Notes under the pieces: generated by a model
What the model was told of the DNA's origin: nothing
Database searches by the model: none
The model's input: the letters and a program-made list of their open reading frames with translations, nothing else
Part shown: piece by piece, positions 6,016-15,483 of the stretch
Position numbering within the stretch: the first letter of the stretch is position 1
Layout: every line of letters starts with the position of its first letter
Position numbers and translations under genes: made by a program
NCBI GenBank assembly: GCA_965223705.1
Contig: OZ245015.1
Location: 1,120,001-1,184,000 of the forward strand
Direction: 5' to 3'
DNA from: Myxococcota bacterium
Lineage (GTDB): Bacteria > Myxococcota_A > UBA9160 > UBA6930
DNA length: 64,000 nt

Positions 6016-6495
6016 ATGGTGAACATTTATCCCGCCGACTTCGACGCCAGTGCGCTGCGCATCGCTATCGTGGTGGCGCGCTTCAACCACCTCGTCTCGT
6101 CTCGCCTCCTCGCGGGGAGCCTCCGCGAGCTCGAGCGTCGGGGTTGCGAGAACGTCGACGTCGCGTGGGTCCCCGGGGCGTACGAAATCCCGCAGGCCGC
6201 CCGCCGGCTCGCCGCATCGGGTCGCTACCAAGCCGTCATCACGCTCGGCGCGGTCATCCGGGGAGGCACACCCCATTTCGACTACGTGTGCCGCGCGGTG
6301 ACCGACGGCGTCCGCGACGTGATTCGCGATACGGGCGTTCCCGTGACCTTCGGTGTTCTCACGACGGACGACGCCGATCAGGCTCTCGAGCGGACCGGCG
6401 GAACCGCAGGGGACAAGGGCAGCGAAGTGGCGCTCGCGGCCATCGAGATGGCGCGCCTGACGCCGCTCCTCGAACAGCCGCCGAGGTCGGCGTGA
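6016..6495 (+). CDS. ribH: 6,7-dimethyl-8-ribityllumazine synthase
   Basis: IVVARFN, VPGAYEIP, GAVIRGGTPHFDYV and FGVLTT motifs. Confidence 0.97.
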   Translation: MVNIYPADFDASALRIAIVVARFNHLVSSRLLAGSLRELERRGCENVDVAWVPGAYEIPQAARRLAASGRYQAVITLGAVIRGGTPHFDYVCRAVTDGVRDVIRDTGVPVTFGVLTTDDADQALERTGGTAGDKGSEVALAAIEMARLTPLLEQPPRSA

Positions 6496-6935
6496 GCTCT
6501 CCGCGCCACGCGTCGCGGCAACGAGCACGGGTGGCCGCGTTACAAGTGCTCTACGCCATCGACGTCCGGTCCGACGCGGGCAACTTCCGCGAAGTGGCTG
6601 AGGAGACGTTCGCGAACGCGCTCGGCCACATCGAAATCCCGACCGGTGCGGAGGCCTTTGCGAAAGAGCTGGTGCTGGGGGTCGCCGACGAGCGCGAGTC
6701 GATCGACGCCGCAATCGTTCGTCACGCGAGAAACTGGCGCCTCGAGCGCATGCCCGCTGTCGACCGGAACGTGCTGCGTTTGGGAGTCTTCGAGTTGCGG
6801 CGCGGTCTCGCGGCGCCCGTGGCCATCGACGAATGTCTCGAGCTCGTCCGTCGCTTCGGCGGCGAGAGCAGCGTCTCTTTCGTGAACGGCGTGCTCGACG
6901 CCTTCGCTCGCGACCTCCCGGAGGGCGCGTCGTGA
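6492..6935 (+). CDS. nusB: Transcription antitermination factor NusB
   Basis: RQRARVAALQVLY, NWRLERMPAVDRNVLRLG and FVNGVLD motifs; GTG overlaps the ribH stop. Confidence 0.94.
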   Translation: MSSPRHASRQRARVAALQVLYAIDVRSDAGNFREVAEETFANALGHIEIPTGAEAFAKELVLGVADERESIDAAIVRHARNWRLERMPAVDRNVLRLGVFELRRGLAAPVAIDECLELVRRFGGESSVSFVNGVLDAFARDLPEGAS

Positions 6936-7549
6936 GCGCCGGGCTCATTCTCGGCGTGTCTTCGGATGCCGCGGAAATCGCCGGTGCCGAGCTGTTGATC
7001 GCTCCGTGGTGCGCGTCCGACCGTCCACCCCGGGGCGCGGCCGGTCGGGTCGATTGGCGGATGTGCGGGCTGGTTTCTCAACTCATCCGCGACGAACGAC
7101 TGACTGGCGAGCGCGACGAGAAGCTCCTCATCGCCACCCATGGACGATTGCGGGCGCCGCGGGTGCTCCTTCTCGGCATGGGCGACCGCACCGCGATCGA
7201 CCCGGAGCGGGCGACCGACGCCGGCATCTTGGGCCTGCGCAGCGCTATGGAGCTCGGTGTCTCCCAGATCGCCCTGTCGTCCGACGTTTTTGGCGGGCTG
7301 CCCGCGGATCGGATGCTTCCCAACCTCGTCCGCGCCTTGGCGCCCGTGGCGGCCGAAGCGTCGGATCCGCTCCATCTGGAATTTCTCGTGGCTCCAACCG
7401 AACGCAGCGCAGCGCGTGAGCGGATTGAGCGCGTCGTCACACGGGGGCTGCGGGAGTTGCCGATGCGTCTCGCCTCAGGGCAGACCGGTGGACGAACCGG
7501 AGACGTCCGACCCCGTGAAAAAGGGGACAAATCCCCCCGGGTCTCTTAA
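6932..7549 (+). CDS. Stand-alone leucyl-aminopeptidase (M17) N-terminal-domain protein with no catalytic domain
   Basis: DRPPRGAAGRVDWRMCG...GERDEKLLI...RLRAPRVLLLGMG pattern; GTG overlaps the nusB stop. Confidence 0.7.
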   Translation: MSAGLILGVSSDAAEIAGAELLIAPWCASDRPPRGAAGRVDWRMCGLVSQLIRDERLTGERDEKLLIATHGRLRAPRVLLLGMGDRTAIDPERATDAGILGLRSAMELGVSQIALSSDVFGGLPADRMLPNLVRALAPVAAEASDPLHLEFLVAPTERSAARERIERVVTRGLRELPMRLASGQTGGRTGDVRPREKGDKSPRVS

Positions 7550-7573
7550 GTCGTCGACCCACTGTCCCGATCT
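7547..7573 (+). promoter_or_regulatory. Putative sigma28/FliA-type promoter
   Basis: TAAG-N15-CCCGATCT against consensus TAAA-N15-GCCGATAA, about 75 nt upstream of ORF 7649. Confidence 0.4.
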
Positions 7574-7648
7574 GGAGGAGATCGCAAAGCCTGGGGAGGG
7601 GTTGCGCAGCCCGGATGCGTCCTCGACCCAACCGCTCGGAGAGTCGCC

Positions 7649-9292
7649 ATGATCGCCGCGTGTCCGCGCTGCAGCGCCCGCTATCGCGTCCAACGTGAAC
7701 GCCTGACCGGTGACGGGGTTCGTCTCCGCTGCGCCCGATGTGAGGCCGTCTTCCGGGTTCGCGCGCCGCGCGGGGCCCCGCCCGAAGCCGCCGCTCCGCA
7801 ACGGCCGGCGCTCGCCCGTCATCGCCCGGCCGGGCCCGCAGCCGAGCGCGTCGCTCCCCGAGATGCGCCGACGCCCCAACCCGGAGCGGCCGGAAAGCCG
7901 CTGGTGCTTTTGGGCTTCGGTGCGAAGGACGGGCTCCACAACTGCATGCGGATGCTCGAGACGCGCTACCAGCCCGAACTGCTGCGCGACGGGGTGCAGC
8001 TTCTCCTCGAGATCTTTCGCCGCTCCCCCGCCTGGGTGGTGCTCGGCGACGGCCTCGCGCGGATGCACGCAGCCGAAGTCACCGAACTTCTGAAGCGAAG
8101 CGGCAAGACGGATGCTCCGCGTACGATTTGGGTCGGCCACCCGAGCGATGCGTTCGTCCCGGGATTCGCGCCCGACCACCAGGTCGACGACATCGATCTG
8201 CTGGACGGGTTGGGCTTGCTCCTCGGTGTGTCGCCCGCCGCTGCCGCGCCACCGGAGGTCGACCGCGCCACGTTCGGCGACCGCACTCCCGATTACTCGG
8301 AGGCCCCGGAGCCCCACGCGAAGGTTCCGCGACACGCCGTTCCCAGCCGGGATTGGAGATCCGAACCGGAACCGGCGGCTCGGGCAGCCGCGCCGCAGAG
8401 GGCGCCCGAAGACGATCCCCAAGACGCCCCGAGCTGGAAACCCGACGCGCGATCCCTCGAATCTTTCGAGGCAGAGCTCGGCGAACCCGCGCCCGCCCGC
8501 GCTCACGCTGAGCACAAGGTCCCGCCGGTGGTTCGCCCGCCGGCGCCGGCGCTCGAAGACTCCTTCTCGGCCGCGATCGGCGGCGGCGACCCGTCTCTCT
8601 CCGACGACGCTGCCGACAGCTTTTCCTTCGACGACCCGGACGGCGGCTTTGCGGGTTCGTTCGGTGCGGAGGATCGGGACCGCACGCCGGAGTTCTCGGG
8701 AACGTTCGGGCGACCCGAGGAAGATGATCCGTTCAATGCCACGCTTCCGGACGACGACGATTTCGCGCCGCTCCGGCCCTCGGACACGGGAACCGGCAGG
8801 GATCCCTTCGCCGCACCGTCGACGGACGCGGCGAACCCGTTCGCGGCGCCGCGAGCCGATGAAACGAATCCCTTCGCCGCGCCGTCCGCCCGCGGTGCGG
8901 AACCCGCCGATCCGTTCGGAGCGCCCGCGGCGCCATCCGCACCCGAGCCGGGCGGAAGTGACTTCTTCTCGCTGACGCCCGACGAGGCGCAAAAACCCCC
9001 GCCGCCGCCGGCGCCCGGAGCGGGTCCAGTGCCCGGTCTCGATCCGGTTCTCGCCGATATGCGCTCCGAGGCCGAGCGCTTCGCGCGCATCGTGGTCTCC
9101 GACATCGTCCTCTACAACGAGGCCAAGTTCGCAGCGGCGGTCGAGGGCGGAAAGGTGCTCGAGGTGATGCGCGCGGAACTCGAGGAAGGGCGCGATCTGT
9201 TTCGGGTCCGGGTCGATCCGCGGATCCGCGACGAGCGGGACTTCCTCGCCGATGAGATACTTCGCGTCGCCGCGACTCGGGCTGGCCGCTAA
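7649..9292 (+). CDS. Zinc-ribbon (MJ0042-type) / pseudo-receiver / Pro-Asp-rich linker / RomX-like domain protein
   Basis: N-terminal CPRC...VRLRCARCEAVF; receiver-like stretch at ~7895-8226; low-complexity linker with DPF/NPF repeats; C-terminal AERFARIVVSDIVLYN...ELEEGRDLFRVRV. Confidence 0.8.
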   Translation: MIAACPRCSARYRVQRERLTGDGVRLRCARCEAVFRVRAPRGAPPEAAAPQRPALARHRPAGPAAERVAPRDAPTPQPGAAGKPLVLLGFGAKDGLHNCMRMLETRYQPELLRDGVQLLLEIFRRSPAWVVLGDGLARMHAAEVTELLKRSGKTDAPRTIWVGHPSDAFVPGFAPDHQVDDIDLLDGLGLLLGVSPAAAAPPEVDRATFGDRTPDYSEAPEPHAKVPRHAVPSRDWRSEPEPAARAAAPQRAPEDDPQDAPSWKPDARSLESFEAELGEPAPARAHAEHKVPPVVRPPAPALEDSFSAAIGGGDPSLSDDAADSFSFDDPDGGFAGSFGAEDRDRTPEFSGTFGRPEEDDPFNATLPDDDDFAPLRPSDTGTGRDPFAAPSTDAANPFAAPRADETNPFAAPSARGAEPADPFGAPAAPSAPEPGGSDFFSLTPDEAQKPPPPPAPGAGPVPGLDPVLADMRSEAERFARIVVSDIVLYNEAKFAAAVEGGKVLEVMRAELEEGRDLFRVRVDPRIRDERDFLADEILRVAATRAGR

Positions 9293-9401
9293 CGCTGGCG
9301 TAGCCTGGGTCGTAGGCGAGCGGACGTCGTGCTGCGTCGCTTGGGTGCTCGCCCAGCTCACGACGGCCTTGCACTGGCGGCGCTGTGGTATACCTCGCCC
9401 G

Positions 9402-9959
9402 ATGAACGGGGTTTACCGCAGGAAGACGCCGCTCGCGTGCCGAGCTGTTCGCGCGGCCGCGCTCACCGTCGCCGCGACGCTCCTCGCGGGCTGTGGCTAC
9501 CAGTTTGTCCGCTACCAAGATGCCTTGGGCGACACCCGACGTGTCGCGATCGTCGGATTGGGAAACGAGACCTTCGAGCCCGGCGTCAATGCGCTCGTGA
9601 CCGAGGCCCTGACCCGCGAGTTTCACCGCCGAAAAGCACTGATCGTCGTCTCGGATCCGGAGAGTGCCGACCTCGTGATCGGCGGGGAAGTCGACCGGTT
9701 GCACACGGAGAGCTTGAGTTTCTCTTCGATCCAGTTCGCTCTCGAATACCAGCTGACCCTGCGCGTCGCGCTCGATATCACGCGGCGCGACGGCACGACG
9801 GTCCGGCTCGATCCCAATGCACTCCAGGAATCGGAACTCTATCTAGCGAGCTCCGATGTCGAAGTCGCACGACAAAACCGACAGGAAGCGCTCCGCCGGG
9901 TGGCGACGATGCTGGCAAGCCGCGTACACGACGCGTTGTTCGAGCGCATGACCCCCTGA
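9402..9959 (+). CDS. lptE: LPS assembly lipoprotein LptE
   Basis: Lipobox LLAGC-GY, NETFEP motif, position immediately upstream of holA. Confidence 0.85.
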   Translation: MNGVYRRKTPLACRAVRAAALTVAATLLAGCGYQFVRYQDALGDTRRVAIVGLGNETFEPGVNALVTEALTREFHRRKALIVVSDPESADLVIGGEVDRLHTESLSFSSIQFALEYQLTLRVALDITRRDGTTVRLDPNALQESELYLASSDVEVARQNRQEALRRVATMLASRVHDALFERMTP

Positions 9960-9962
9960 CGG

Positions 9963-10949
9963 ATGGCGCTCACTCCGGAAGAACTCGCCGCTGAGCTCGA
10001 CGCGGGGAATCTCCGTCCGGCTTACCTCATCGCAGGGCCGCAGGCGCTCTTCCGAGACGACGCACGCGCCGCCCTCCGCGAGCACGTGCTCGGCCCGTCG
10101 CCCGACGCCTTCCGCCTCGACGTGCTCGAAGGCGCGAACACTGCACCCGGCGAACTTCTCGACGCCGTTCGTGCGCTTCCGGTCCTGGGTGGTCGCCGGC
10201 TCGTCGAATTGCGCGATCCCGACGCGCGGCGCGGAGACAAGCTCGGCGCGGCGATCGCCGAGGCGGTCGTCGAGCAGTGCGAGCTCGACGCCGAAGCGGG
10301 CTGCGTCTTTGTCGTCACCGGGGAGAAGATCGATCGGCGGTCCGCCTGGGCGCGCGAGTTCAAGGAGCCGGCGGGGACGGTCGCGTGCGAAACACCCAAA
10401 GGAAAACGCGGTCTCTCGGCGTTTGTCGGAGCCGAGGCGAAGCGCCGCGGGATTCGCCTCGGTTCGGGCGCGGCTTCGGCCCTCGTCGATCGCATCGGCC
10501 CGGATCTCCTCGCGCTGCGGTCCGAGCTCGAGAAGCTGGCGCTCTTCGTGTCCGAAGGTGAGAGCGTCACGGCGCGACTTGTCGTGGACGCCTCCGCTGA
10601 AGTCGCGGAGGAGCCCATCTGGGAGCTCACCGACGCCATCGGCAATGGACAGACGGGGGAGGCGTTGCGCCTGCTCGGGCGGATGCGGGGCGCCGGTGCG
10701 CCTGCGCCGGTCATCCTGGGATCCCTTGCGAGCCATTGGCGGAAACTGCTGCGGATCGAATCCGGTGCTCCGGTGTCCGGACACCCCTACGCCGTGAAGA
10801 AGCTTCGCGCCCAGGCCGAACGGTACCGGCCCGGGGAGCTTCAAGTGGGCTTGCGCGGTATCTGGGAGCTCGACGCGATTCTGAAAGGCGAGGGTGTGCT
10901 CGACCCCGAGGTGGCGCTCGAGCGGCTCGTTCTCAATCTGTCGCGATGA
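9963..10949 (+). CDS. holA: DNA polymerase III delta subunit
   Basis: LRPAYLIAG, LPVLGGRRLV, ELEKL and IWELTDAI motifs; lptE-holA-rpsT order. Confidence 0.92.
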   Translation: MALTPEELAAELDAGNLRPAYLIAGPQALFRDDARAALREHVLGPSPDAFRLDVLEGANTAPGELLDAVRALPVLGGRRLVELRDPDARRGDKLGAAIAEAVVEQCELDAEAGCVFVVTGEKIDRRSAWAREFKEPAGTVACETPKGKRGLSAFVGAEAKRRGIRLGSGAASALVDRIGPDLLALRSELEKLALFVSEGESVTARLVVDASAEVAEEPIWELTDAIGNGQTGEALRLLGRMRGAGAPAPVILGSLASHWRKLLRIESGAPVSGHPYAVKKLRAQAERYRPGELQVGLRGIWELDAILKGEGVLDPEVALERLVLNLSR

Positions 10950-11354: not shown

Positions 11355-13295
11355 GTGATGGGCAACTTGAGCGCAACGGACACTCGATATCGCCGGATCC
11401 CGACGTGGGCGGAGACCCGATGCCACTGGATCCAAACCTGGGCCGCGATCGCCCTGCTGGCGCTGGCCGCCCCGGTGGCGGCGCAGGACACGAGCGGCAA
11501 ACCCGCCGGGCCTGCGGTCGTTTCCGAAGCGGCCGAGCCCGCCGGGCCTGCGGTCGTTTCCGAAGCGGCCGAGCCGGAAGAGGGTGAAGTCACCGTCCCC
11601 GAAGCCCAGGTGGAGACCGTCTCACCGAGCGTGCCCTCCGCCCGCGAAATTCTCACGGCCGAGTGGAACCGAACCGGCCGCTCGCTCTCGGGGCGCGTCG
11701 GTGCAACCCGGGAGCGGCTGGTCGAGCTCGGCATGGTGGGCTTCCCGCCGGCCGCGCGCGCGTTGATCCTCGACGAGACCCTGGGCGACGAGCTCACACG
11801 TGCCGAAGGCGCGGTGGCGCTGGCGCCGGGTCTCCCCGACTCCCACGCCTTCCACGCGCTGGCCCTCCTCGCCGACGGTTCGCCTTTGGCGTCGTTGCGC
11901 GCATGGGCTCGCAGCGCCGCCGCAGCCCGGGGTCACTTCGAGGGACGCGTTTGGTTGCAAGGGCACGGCTGGGCCTGGCTCGCGCTGGTCCTCGTATTGG
12001 GAGGAGCGCTCTACCTGCTCGTTGCCGGGTGTATCGCGTTGCCTCGGCTCGCCGTGCGCTTCGCGGGGCCCGAACGGAGTATTCCGCTCGCCGCCGGAGT
12101 CGCACTGCTCCTCATCCCGGTAGCCGTCCCAGGCGTTCTGGGCGTCGGAATCCTCGGGATGCTGCTGGTGCTGGGAGCCCTCGCGCTCGCAGCGGGATCC
12201 GGACTTACGCGTTTGTGTGTCGGCGCTGCGGGCGCCGCGTGCATCCTCGGCACGTACCCGGCGCTCGACGGCGCCGTTCGAAGTTTCGGGATGGTCGGCT
12301 CCGATCCGGTTGCGGAGGCGGCGTACAACATCGATTGGGAAACGGCGTCGGCGATCGATCTCGCCCGGGTGCGAACCGAGGATGTCGATCCGATGGCGCG
12401 CCGCGCGCTGGCGACATGGGATCGCAGGCGAGGGCGCCTGCAGAGTGCCCTCGACCGCTACGAAGGTCTGCTGGGCGCCCAAGCGGCCACCGAGATGTTG
12501 AACAACGCGGCGAACCTGCGGCTGTCTCTAGGAGACGCCGAGGCGGCCATCGGACTCTACGAGCGGGCTGCGAAGCAATCCCGCGACCCGGCGATCTTGA
12601 TCAACCTGGCGGAAGCGTACGGGCGCACGATTCGACTCGACGAACAGAATTTGGCGCTCGCCGAGGCGCAATTGATCGATGCGGCCGCCGTCGATGAGCT
12701 AACCCACGGCGACGAGGCCACGCGGCTTCGCGACATGGGGATCAGCGTCGAGGAGATGGGCCGTCGACTCGAACTCCGTCCGCGGGTCACCCACGCAGCA
12801 GCGCTGCGCGCGGGGATTGCGCCCGCAATCGCGGAAGAGCGTTGGGTGTTTGTCCTCGCGTTGTTCGGCGGTTTCGCGCTCGCGTCGATTGCGCTCGGTC
12901 AGTGGCTGCCCGACGGTCGCTCGGTCTCCGCATACCTCGACGGTAGAGCGGAGCAGACCCACGGACGGGGAGCCACAACGGACCCGTTTGAACGCCTGCG
13001 CCGCGCCGGCGAGAACCGGACGCGAAAGAAGCGTCTCCGCTGGGTCTCTCTCGGCCTCGGAAGCATCGTGCCCGGTGCGGCGGCACTCCTCGGCGCGAAA
13101 CCCCTGACCGGTTTCTTCGCGTTGTTCGGCTTCGCGGCCGCCGGCGCGTCGTGGCTTTTGCGCAATGGAATCTTTCCCGATCCGCTTGCGGCGGGCCTCC
13201 TGCTCCACGGACTCGCTGTGATGGCCGCGACTCTCGCGATGTGTGTCTTCGCCTGGTGCTCTCTTTCGTCGCTCTACGCGCTCTGGAGGGATTGA
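11355..13295 (+). CDS. Multi-pass membrane protein with tetratricopeptide repeats
   Basis: Signal-like N-terminus and several hydrophobic segments; TPR-like LNNAANLRLSLGDAEAAIGLYERA...LINLAEAY. Exact start uncertain. Confidence 0.7.
   Translation: MMGNLSATDTRYRRIPTWAETRCHWIQTWAAIALLALAAPVAAQDTSGKPAGPAVVSEAAEPAGPAVVSEAAEPEEGEVTVPEAQVETVSPSVPSAREILTAEWNRTGRSLSGRVGATRERLVELGMVGFPPAARALILDETLGDELTRAEGAVALAPGLPDSHAFHALALLADGSPLASLRAWARSAAAARGHFEGRVWLQGHGWAWLALVLVLGGALYLLVAGCIALPRLAVRFAGPERSIPLAAGVALLLIPVAVPGVLGVGILGMLLVLGALALAAGSGLTRLCVGAAGAACILGTYPALDGAVRSFGMVGSDPVAEAAYNIDWETASAIDLARVRTEDVDPMARRALATWDRRRGRLQSALDRYEGLLGAQAATEMLNNAANLRLSLGDAEAAIGLYERAAKQSRDPAILINLAEAYGRTIRLDEQNLALAEAQLIDAAAVDELTHGDEATRLRDMGISVEEMGRRLELRPRVTHAAALRAGIAPAIAEERWVFVLALFGGFALASIALGQWLPDGRSVSAYLDGRAEQTHGRGATTDPFERLRRAGENRTRKKRLRWVSLGLGSIVPGAAALLGAKPLTGFFALFGFAAAGASWLLRNGIFPDPLAAGLLLHGLAVMAATLAMCVFAWCSLSSLYALWRD
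11502..11575 (+). repeat. Perfect 36-bp in-frame tandem duplication (PAGPAVVSEAAE x2)
   Basis: cccgccgggcctgcggtcgtttccgaagcggccgag at 11502-11537 and 11538-11573. Confidence 0.95.
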
Positions 13296-13300
13296 GGCTC

Positions 13301-14410
13301 GTGTCAGCACTTCTCGGAAATCTGCGCGACTTCGGCATGGGCGAAGTCTTTCAGCTGATCGGTCAGCAGCGAAAGACCGGCGTGCTCCGGGCGGAAGGCC
13401 CCGACGGTCGCATCGACGTGATGTTCGACGGCGGTCACGTGGTCTCCGCGACCTACGCGGGCCTGCACCCGGGGGCGGCGCTCGGCGACATGTTGGTGCG
13501 CCTCGGGATGATGACTCCTGAACGCCTGACCGACGTCGAGCGGGCGCGGGCTTCGTCGACGTCTGAGAGCTTCGAGCGCTTGCTGTCGCGGATGGCAGAA
13601 ATTCCGATGGACGCCATCGAAGAAGTGAAGGATGTCGTCACACAGGAGGCGCTGTTCGATCTCCTCCGCTGGAGCTACGGATCGTTCGAGTTCAGCGCTC
13701 ACCCCGTCACCCATACGAAGCGTCAACAAGATTTGCTCCCTGCAGAGCAGATCTTGATGGACGGACTGCGCATGGTGGATGAGTGGCAGAGCTTCCCGCC
13801 GGAGGTGCGCGACGAGCAGACGGTGTTCGCGAAAGCGGAGTCCTTCGACGCGTACCGCGCCGCGTTCCCCAGCGAGTCGATCGACTGGGTGACCGCGGCC
13901 GAGCGGCTCTACTTGTTGATCGATGGACGTCTGCCGGTCCGTCGCGTCGTGGATCTGTCCCGACTCGGAACCTTCGAGGGCTGCCGCATCTTGGCGGGTC
14001 TCGTCACGTGCGGCGCGGTCGAACCCCAGGATGAAAGTCGCGGCGGCCTCGCGCTCCGCGGGCTCGACGCGGTTCACTCCGGAGCCTTTCGCTGGCTCGG
14101 CGTCGGCGCCATGGCCCTGCTCCTGGTGATGGCGTTTTGGGTGACTTCGCCGCGACTTCCGGACCCGCCCGACGGCGTCATTCCGTTGCGGACCCACCTC
14201 ATGACGTCGCTTGCGGCTCGCTTCGACACGTTGCGGGCGCGCCGACTCGCCGACGCCGCGGCCCTACTCGAGCCCGGGCGAAGCCTTCACGCGAGCGACA
14301 TCAGCCGACTCGCGCCCGCCGACCGAGAGCCCTTGTGGGGCGCCCCAGGTGCTCCCTACTATCATTCGGGGGACGATGGCGTCATCGTCGTCCTGGCACC
14401 GGAGCACTGA
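13301..14410 (+). CDS. DUF4388 domain-containing membrane protein
   Basis: ALLGNLRDFGMGEVFQLIGQQRKTGVL and ILMDGLRMVDEW motifs; C-terminal TM helix; GTG at 13301. Confidence 0.85.
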   Translation: MSALLGNLRDFGMGEVFQLIGQQRKTGVLRAEGPDGRIDVMFDGGHVVSATYAGLHPGAALGDMLVRLGMMTPERLTDVERARASSTSESFERLLSRMAEIPMDAIEEVKDVVTQEALFDLLRWSYGSFEFSAHPVTHTKRQQDLLPAEQILMDGLRMVDEWQSFPPEVRDEQTVFAKAESFDAYRAAFPSESIDWVTAAERLYLLIDGRLPVRRVVDLSRLGTFEGCRILAGLVTCGAVEPQDESRGGLALRGLDAVHSGAFRWLGVGAMALLLVMAFWVTSPRLPDPPDGVIPLRTHLMTSLAARFDTLRARRLADAAALLEPGRSLHASDISRLAPADREPLWGAPGAPYYHSGDDGVIVVLAPEH

Positions 14411-14451
14411 CGCTCCGCTAAGCCGCGGCACCGGAGCACTGACGCTCCGCT
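14395..14451 (+). repeat. 25-bp direct repeat x2 (period 32) spanning the DUF4388 stop codon, each copy a hairpin
   Basis: ggcaccggagcactgacgctccgct at 14395-14419 and 14427-14451; internal stem cggagc/gctccg. Confidence 0.92.
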
Positions 14452-14460
14452 CGGAGGCCC

Positions 14461-15483
14461 GTGAGCGCCCAGCAAGCCCGCACCAGGCAGACGCTCGTTT
14501 TCGACGACAACCAAACCGCGGTGCTTCTGTACGGCGAACGCGAGGAGACCCTCCGTCTCATCGAAAATGAGTTGGGCATCCGCGCGCGCGCGCGAGGCAA
14601 CGAGGTCCGCCTGATCGGCGACGAGGCACCGGTTCGCGCCGGAAAGAAAGTCTTGGAGGGGCTCTACGGCGTGCTCCGCTCCGGCGGAGAAGTCGGCCCG
14701 CGCGAAGTGCGCGACGCCATTCGCATGGTCGCGAAGGAGCCCGACGTCCCGCTGGAAGAAGCTTACGAAGATGTCCTGGCCGGTTTCGGGGGGCGGCGAA
14801 AGATCGCCGCGAAGAATCACTCGCAGCGGCGCTATGTCGAGGTCATTCGCGAACGCGACGTGGTGTTCAGCATCGGGCCCGCGGGCACGGGCAAGACCTA
14901 CCTCGCGATGGCGATGGCGCTCGCCGCGTTCGGACGCCGCGAGGTCGCGCGGGTGATTCTCACCCGGCCGGCCGTCGAAGCGGGGGAGCGCCTGGGATTT
15001 CTCCCCGGTTCGATGGCGGAGAAAGTCAATCCGTACCTGCGGCCGCTCTACGACGCGCTCCACGACATGATGGATTTCGAGAAGGCCGCGAGATTGATCG
15101 AGCGGGGCGTCATCGAAGTGGCGCCCCTGGCCTTTATGCGCGGGCGTACCCTGAACGACTCTTTCGTCATCCTCGATGAAGCGCAGAACACGACGCCCGA
15201 GCAGATGAAGATGTTCCTCACTCGCCTCGGCTATCACTCGAAGGCGGTGATCACCGGGGACGTTACCCAGATCGATTTGCCGGCGGACCAACCGAGCGGC
15301 TTGATCGACGCCCGACGAAAACTCGAAGGCGTGGAGGGGATCGGTTTCATGTACTTCACCGAGGCCGATGTCGTCCGTCACCCGCTCGTTCAATCGATCA
15401 TCCGAGCGTACGATCGCTTCGAGAGCCCGCCCCGAAAATCCGGGGCGACGGATCCGAGTCAGGACGAACGCGAAGCCTCATGA
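14461..15483 (+). CDS. phoH: PhoH family ATPase (YbeZ-like)
   Basis: [33 protein letters not shown] and DEAQN motifs. Confidence 0.95.

Follow-up and report, generated by a model that had tools for sequence, protein, structure and literature searches.

The window analyzed here, a stretch of 64,000 nucleotides from a Myxococcota bacterium, encodes a protein in which a zinc ribbon, a receiver-shaped domain, a long linker with repeats, and a C-terminal RomX-type domain follow one another in a single chain (Table 1). All of these parts had been named in the original prediction, and all are confirmed. An AF2 model built on a 56-row alignment is confident over residues ~1-40, 81-200, and 466-547 and of low confidence elsewhere; the relative placement of the domains is not resolved (pTM 0.39). 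GC3 is 0.83-0.84 in the folded domains and 0.78 over the whole gene. The stretch from 6400 to 10200 is unbroken in public contigs, with one or two differences (two runs of one sample, possibly the source sample).

Table 1. Features of the locus, with positions in the window.
Feature	Position	Strand	Basis or remark
nusB, left flank	6492..6935	+	PF01029 E 8.5e-31; flank in relatives
Peptidase-M17-N-like gene (M17N), directly 5' of the deleted cluster genes	6866..7549	+	PF02789 E 4.2e-10; start codon uncertain
Fusion gene (protein P0001, 547 aa: zinc ribbon, pseudo-receiver, linker, RomX domain)	7649..9292	+	ORF intact
Zinc ribbon, MJ0042/GltJ-ZnR type, C5/C8/C28/C31	7649..7759	+	PF13717 E 1e-11; TIGR02098 E 1.4e-9
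Degenerate receiver, aa ~84-192	7895..8227	+	G133 at the acceptor site; acidic pair absent; D181 at the Lys position
Linker, Pro/Ala/Asp/Phe-rich, ~270 aa	8228..9043	+	pLDDT mostly <55; composition
Acidic-hydrophobic linker motif, aa 263-282	8435..8494	+	19/20 residues identical in P0008
Four [DN]PF[AG]AP repeats, starting at aa 385, 396, 407, 421	8801..8926	+	spacing 11, 11, 14 aa
RomX-type helical bundle	9044..9292	+	starts at ~aa 466; stops short of the W87 position; R477/R480/D485 = RomX R11/R14/D19
lptE-like gene, right flank	9401..9959	+	47-62% identical to the relatives' gene (PF04390); no Pfam match of its own
holA (DNA polymerase III delta), right flank	9963..10949	+	PF21694 E 5.3e-10

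The protein is long for its family: its 547 residues compare with a median of 346 and a maximum of 465 among 119 homologues. A homologue search returned 156 proteins of 300-958 aa, with the zinc ribbon in nearly all among the 120 matches listed. The closest relative is P0008, and a plasmid search gave no match. Some larger proteins (P0130-P0136 and others, 600-990 aa) carry a receiver followed by three to five RomX-like stretches, and at least one of them also has a zinc ribbon (Pfam-scanned); these are possibly multivalent MglA binders.

The zinc ribbon belongs to the GltJ/MJ0042 type. The CxxC...CxxC ribbon predicted for the N-terminus is borne out over residues 1-36 by the PF13717 and TIGR02098 matches. 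Its four cysteines are invariant across 56 rows, and it matches PDB 7ZOK weakly (E 0.035). The available text of PMC11135422 describes the ZnR of GltJ as binding the C-terminal helix of MglB and competing with MglA-GTP for a linker motif, and adds that ZnR ligands probably vary outside Myxococcales. As in GltJ/AgmX, an N-terminal ribbon of this family is followed by a disordered acidic linker. However, the protein here has no GYF or membrane part and scores 26.8 bits against NF033761 (cut-off 450), and the MglA site lies in the linker in GltJ, as far as that source covers it, but would lie in the folded RomX domain here. No GltJ above the family cut-off was found in the source genome. The only other zinc-ribbon protein of similar type found there (C1 3839375-3840712, minus strand; L250) combines a ribbon and an acidic linker with a single hydrophobic segment and another domain.

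The linker carries repeats that are lineage-specific. The four predicted [DN]PF[AG]AP repeats are present, although they end at nucleotide 8926 and not near 8945, and an extra, fifth DPF lies at residue 360. The repeats go beyond chance: two or more copies arose in 0 of 20000 linker shuffles, and two [DN]PF[AG] occur in none of the other 60326 six-frame ORFs. Among the 119 homologues, one has a full copy of [DN]PF[AG]AP and three have a single [DN]PF. An 11-residue repeat at the C-terminus of P0008 could be the same motif read out of frame. The motif at residues 263-282 is a candidate ligand of the zinc ribbon or of MglA.

The receiver has lost every feature of a phosphorylatable regulator. 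It has no Pfam match, but its AF2 model is a five-strand alpha/beta fold (pLDDT 84-97) whose top Foldseek matches are the DivK and FrzS receivers (E ~1e-5), in support of the predicted receiver-shaped domain with Gly at the acceptor position (Gly133). The acidic pocket, acceptor Asp, and conserved Lys are all lost. Across the 119 homologues, the acceptor Asp is present in just 57, and Lys is not one of the four residues seen most often at its position. The family instead conserves an R[YF]RR loop (R168 in 115/119, Y169 in 113/119), which the query lacks.

The C-terminal domain is related to RomX. Residues 472-535 match RomX (PDB 8ZNA) at E 2.6e-9 and the domain alone at 5.9e-11 (phmmer), and a Foldseek comparison with 8ZNA gives E 2.3e-5, an rmsd of 2.0 A, 36% identity, and a TM-score of 0.68 by target length. 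The predicted relationship to RomX thus stands in both sequence and fold, with the domain, put at ~75 residues from nucleotide 9068, beginning slightly earlier, at a helical start at 9044. It shares with M. xanthus RomX a homologous three-helix bundle, the R11/R14/D19 residues, and the same modeled MglA face, but it is fused behind three other parts and lacks the W87 tail. R477, R480, and D485 are invariant in all 119 homologues. According to the accessible part of 10.1101/2024.02.20.581209, RomX mutants at R11/R14/D19 lose exchange activity, and MglA-GTP binding is gone when both Arg are mutated; W87 and the helix-3 Arg face RomR, and W87 is buried upon RomR binding. The chain here stops at RomX position 81, and a W87-type Trp is absent from every aligned fused domain, whereas the Trp tail is invariant in 17/17 stand-alone RomX of relatives. 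The helix-3 Arg (R544) is kept in 114/119 homologues. The original prediction had described RomX as the MglA-binding part of a RomR/RomX GEF. The GEF label is disputed in 10.1101/2024.10.31.621274 (published as PMC13408092), the available text of which argues that RomX binds only MglA-GTP and is an MglA-GTP effector rather than a GEF.

Modeling of this domain with the cognate MglA, a check that the original prediction had proposed, supports a likeness to the RomX-MglA pair. ESMFold2, given the genome's MglA with GTP and Mg and residues 462-547, returned a score of 0.74 (best of three controls 0.00); the mark for this score is reached by 116/157 solved and 2/215 mismatched pairs, and the alignment and GTP ligand used here lie outside that calibration. 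Contact agreement among the complex runs was 100%, and the partner's pLDDT was 90. The modeled contacts join residues 477/480/481/485 to MglA 108-115 and 82-84, and the interface is that of the model presented in the available text of 10.1101/2024.02.20.581209. The score may, however, come from this resemblance and not from binding by this particular copy.

The gene occupies the site of a former chemosensory cluster. Its position between nusB-M17N and lptE-holA, the synteny singled out earlier, is orthologous in relatives. There the order runs nusB, M17N, DUF4388 protein, cheY, cheA, cheW, cheW, MCP, and fusion gene, followed by HEAT, cheR, cheB, coiled-coil-GAF, cheY, lptE, and holA. In the source genome the fusion gene stands alone between M17N and lptE; neither a cheR orthologue (at E 1e-45) nor a HEAT homologue was found in that genome. 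Judged from gene order, the nusB-M17N synteny marks where a chemosensory cluster was deleted. In a genome of the same genus (G001), M17N directly adjoins lptE and the fusion gene is lost as well. The relatives' cluster shares the order cheY-cheA-cheW-cheW...cheR-cheB...cheY with M. xanthus che8 (MXAN_4751-4759, as given in the available text of PMC3945109), a likeness of gene order only; it differs in adding the MCP and the coiled-coil-GAF gene, and in the source genome the cluster is gone.

Other remnants and look-alikes of the cluster were also seen. A half-deleted cluster in another genome (L110, G013 C15) keeps DUF4388, cheY, and cheA and has lost cheW through the last cheY, including the fusion gene. 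In the source genome, DUF4388-type and coiled-coil-GAF genes lie side by side at L068 6330-8766 (G000 C1 2816328-2818819, minus strand); they are distantly homologous to the genes that stood first and second-last in the deleted cluster. The pair may be relocated cluster genes or paralogues: their only matches in relatives are the cluster genes, yet identity is 33-40%, a paralogue level. Another DUF4388-like gene lies in the window at 13151-14410, 3' of rpsT and a TPR/membrane gene, in a position conserved in relatives.

Cluster loss is accompanied by decay of the receiver. The R[YF]RR loop is present in 34/36 cluster-bearing copies vs 2/22 cluster-less copies, and median scores are lower in the latter (119 vs 190 bits for the receiver, 104 vs 121 for the RomX domain); the profiles were built from family homologues and lean to the cluster-bearing type, and related copies are not independent. 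The query's RomX domain scores 114 bits, while its receiver, at 41.7 bits, is the lowest among 56 sequences from these loci in which the domain is retained. The helix-1 Arg pair is kept in 22/22 cluster-less copies and the Asp in 20/22, with Glu in the other two. Two cluster-less copies (L078 and L086, 157 and 172 aa) have no receiver at all and consist of ribbon, short linker, and RomX domain. One frameshifted copy (L052) and two cut by contig ends (L075, L079) were left out of the comparison. Read at the level of these alignments, the pattern after cluster loss is one in which the receiver decays and the MglA face persists.

The loop exceptions point to a partner for the receiver. Both cluster-bearing copies without R[YF]RR come from loci in which the coiled-coil-GAF gene is absent, and one cluster-less copy with the loop retains that gene. 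Because the exceptions match the presence or absence of this gene, the coiled-coil-GAF protein is the best candidate partner. Across wider loci, the strict R[YF]RR is found in 52/57 with the gene, the remaining five having RYRR or RYHR with small variants, and in 3/9 without it; these 66 informative loci (14/80 were uninformative) include some from genomes already counted, and the scan patterns favor intact receivers. A strict rule by which the loop tracks the gene was rejected as imperfect over these loci.

The source genome (G000; 4.56 Mb, two contigs, 95% complete) contains the MglA polarity module. The mglA, mglB, and romR genes for which the original prediction proposed a search are all present. 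PF03029 misses MglA in this genome, which we located through a roadblock search; the genes stand in the order recR-mglB-mglA, and MglB has an acidic C-terminal tail. A roadblock protein is one that we take to be MglC-like by position and fold. Pilus-type ATPases and flagellins are also encoded. The suggestion that the protein is a variant of the MglA polarity module therefore keeps its footing in the module and the RomX-type domain, but not in the form of a RomR-RomX fusion.

The module has no detectable stand-alone romX. Protein searches, profiles of the fused and stand-alone domains, and tblastn found none in the source genome, where the only RomX-type domain found is the fused one; a candidate at E 0.07 was rejected as a match inside a gyrase B-like ORF. 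In relatives, stand-alone RomX is a Trp-ending protein of 88-91 aa encoded beside rluD, between it and a DnaJ/HTH-like gene (names read from sequence), whereas the locus of the fused type is the che cluster. The gap at the rluD site measures 273-406 nt in 16 genomes with romX, 52 nt in the source genome, and 6-107 nt in 14/17 other romX-less genomes where it was measurable. The first codons of rluD (L061 5598-5640; G000 C1 ~278597) resemble the start of stand-alone RomX, a likeness reached by 0.002 of random 11-mers per position (~0.02 over eight offsets) and missing in two genomes of the same genus; that this start is a scar of romX deletion is suggestive only.

The fused type is the dominant form of the RomX domain in the order. 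We surveyed 111 genomes of the order, drawn evenly and at least 88% complete; they are related and incomplete, so the counts are non-independent. Bit scores exceeded 100 for stand-alone RomX and were 30-58 for the fused type, and the fused ORF itself was read in ~60 genomes. The fused type occurs in 103/111 genomes and stand-alone RomX in 27/111, from three families only; both types occur in 26/111, the fused type alone in 77/111, and neither in 7/111. MglA matches were found in 107/111, and the four genomes without MglA are also without a RomX-type domain. Five genomes of 2.1-2.8 Mb from three genera of the family (G001, G002, G016, G004, and G007, two of them of the same genus as the source) have neither MglA nor a RomX domain. 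This suggests repeated loss of the whole polarity module in small genomes. In a sample of 61 genomes across the phylum, long-frame copies are confined to the class, and one short copy was found in 24/50 genomes outside it.

The fusion has outlived its cluster in six families. The cluster cheR was not found in 31/111 genomes (11 of them identified by subtraction), and the fusion is kept in 24 of these, from six families, next to lptE or holA. Of the other seven, four are without MglA, two have a broken or unassembled locus, and one (G013), its locus otherwise contiguous, has lost the fusion and kept a stand-alone RomX. We consider it probable that the protein is an MglA-GTP-binding adaptor that was once the output of the chemosensory cluster; perhaps it now stands in for RomX.

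A stronger claim, compatible with an adaptor, is that the protein took over the job of RomX, with the fused domain binding the RomR receiver in trans as well as MglA-GTP. The 77 genomes with the fused type alone argue for it, as do the 0/24 cluster-less fusion keepers with a stand-alone RomX and the fact that G013, the sole cluster-less genome with a stand-alone RomX, is one that lost the fusion, although that is a single case. RomR itself offers further support: its E108 is kept in the source genome, in all 27 relatives read, and in 15/15 readable genomes without stand-alone RomX (position 17 being V in 8/15 and L in 7/15; G028 and G047 were not parsed, and G073 has no RomR match), and R544 persists in most fused domains. 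E108, however, directly follows the KPF motif of the receiver and may be retained for other reasons. The absence of the RomR-facing Trp from all aligned fused domains and the coexistence of both forms in 26 genomes also speak against a takeover, which we regard as plausible but doubtful.

It is unlikely that the partner is another GTPase or a non-GTPase, such as an MglA paralogue or a displaced cluster protein. The source genome does encode two further MglA-like proteins (46% and 36% identical), and the DUF4388-type and coiled-coil-GAF genes distantly related to those of the cluster remain side by side at C1 2.817 Mb. Four genomes (G094, G096, G097, and G098) have the fused type with MglA matches at paralogue level only, which also counts against an MglA-binding adaptor. 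However, among the three MglA-like proteins of the source genome, only the canonical MglA has E108, E111, and E115 together: one paralogue has none of these acidic helix residues, and E115 and the switch-II Gln are missing from the other. The fusion is also kept in seven genomes with a single MglA (G028, G047, G069, G073, G082, G093, and G105). Three MglA-like genes are found in most genomes of the order; in the source genome, where the paralogues lie at L007 ~14040-15001 (G000 C1 2669042-2670316) and L114 5062-5796, the paralogue near romR has an altered P-loop and switch II and lies ~0.5 kb past a fusA-like gene, and the other has a longer C-terminal tail.

The original idea of RomR-like and RomX-like parts in one chain does not hold. 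A self-contained RomR-RomX fusion acting as a single-chain GEF for MglA would account for the joining of a receiver, a long Pro-rich acidic linker, and a RomX domain; DPF motifs are also found in 11/29 RomR linkers read, and the available text of 10.1101/2024.02.20.581209 suggests that a receiver-RomX contact is built into such proteins. A long, disordered Pro-rich region after the receiver, as in M. xanthus RomR, is however not a specific trait, and the source genome has a separate, full romR of 642 aa elsewhere, with D53, K105, E108, the C-terminal Trp helix, and V17. This helix, which binds MglC according to the available text of PMC12719032, has its sole motif match in the source genome in that romR and is missing from the fusion, as are the acceptor Asp and Lys and the RomR-docking Trp tail. 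The receiver is not RomR-like: with the family receiver profile, RomR ranks 15th of 15 source-genome matches. In a tree, 29 fused domains and 55 stand-alone domains (17 from the order and 38 Trp-ending representatives) split at 100/100, with the query among the fused rows, grouped weakly with fusions of the same family; the tree has 89 columns, a midpoint root, and fused rows from one order, L026 was omitted, and the missing Trp tail adds to the split. The fused type is therefore an old paralogue and did not arise by recent fusion of the romX of this genome. The separate romR and this split largely refute a RomR-RomX fusion, and the GEF activity of RomRX is itself disputed in what is available of 10.1101/2024.10.31.621274; we hold this reading to be very improbable. 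Least probable of all is a decaying, functionless relic of the deleted cluster: no receiver scored is more eroded than that of the query, the linker is expanded, and the gene is lost in a same-genus genome, but the frame is intact, all Cys and helix-1 residues are kept, the RomX-domain score lies near the cluster-bearing median, the domain is 82% identical to that of one relative, and the gene was retained after cluster loss in six families.

An adaptor that binds MglA-GTP could have arisen as follows. A paralogous RomX subfamily would ancestrally have sat inside a Che8-like chemosensory cluster, with the pseudo-receiver probably docking to one of the cluster proteins, tying the array to MglA, and helix 1 of the RomX-type domain, as modeled, gripping GTP-loaded MglA. 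The lineage would then have lost the cluster genes on either side, along with stand-alone romX, while keeping the fusion gene. The receiver would have decayed with the MglA face intact, and a new anchor may come from the lengthened linker with its new motifs. If the ribbon works as in GltJ, it may bind the C-terminal helix of MglB, or a linker motif may keep it closed; a single chain could then hold MglA-GTP and pass MglA to its GAP. MglA binding here comes from a model, and MglB binding, a linker switch, localization, and any role in motility would follow by inference. We propose the full scheme only tentatively: a Che-cluster paralogue displaced canonical RomX, its Trp-less RomX domain clamps MglA-GTP and its ribbon recruits the GAP MglB under control of its own linker, and the protein links the Che array to MglA, probably via coiled-coil-GAF, or acts as a cluster-free adaptor where the cluster is lost.

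The architecture itself is known. The original prediction had allowed that it might already be characterized with another function; it has been pictured, but as uncharacterized, in Desulfuromonas A0A2N6E6P0 (zinc finger, receiver, and RomX fold; Fig. 1E in the accessible part of 10.1101/2024.02.20.581209). Deltaproteobacterial regulators of this type share the three-domain architecture, a likeness drawn by architecture and not by sequence comparison. Set against what that source gives of them, the protein here has a badly eroded receiver, a much longer linker with its own repeats, and a gene orphaned from its cluster. We found no paper on the function of the fusion, its dominance over stand-alone RomX in the order, or its survival after cluster loss, although the 2019 genome survey of Szadkowski may bear on these points. 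Literature on MXAN_4754/4755/4760, GSU2217/2219, and Geobacter chemotaxis-cluster surveys held nothing relevant that we found, and we found no mention of the fusion protein or MglA in the available text of PMC5585712 (Esn genes). The distribution, orphaning, and back-up pattern were not found in the literature searched.

Two questions that are open in Myxococcus bear on this subfamily: the chemosensory route to the MglA switch, and the nature of RomX as GEF or effector. The subfamily may offer a natural dissection, with the MglA face of RomX, free of the RomR tail, tethered to a ribbon that, by analogy, likely binds MglB and to a receiver that would dock on the cluster. A soluble domain of 86 residues, MglA, and MglB, all from one genome, are amenable to existing assays. 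The repeated cluster losses separate the parts linked to MglA (helix 1 and the zinc ribbon) from the part linked to the cluster (the R[YF]RR loop).
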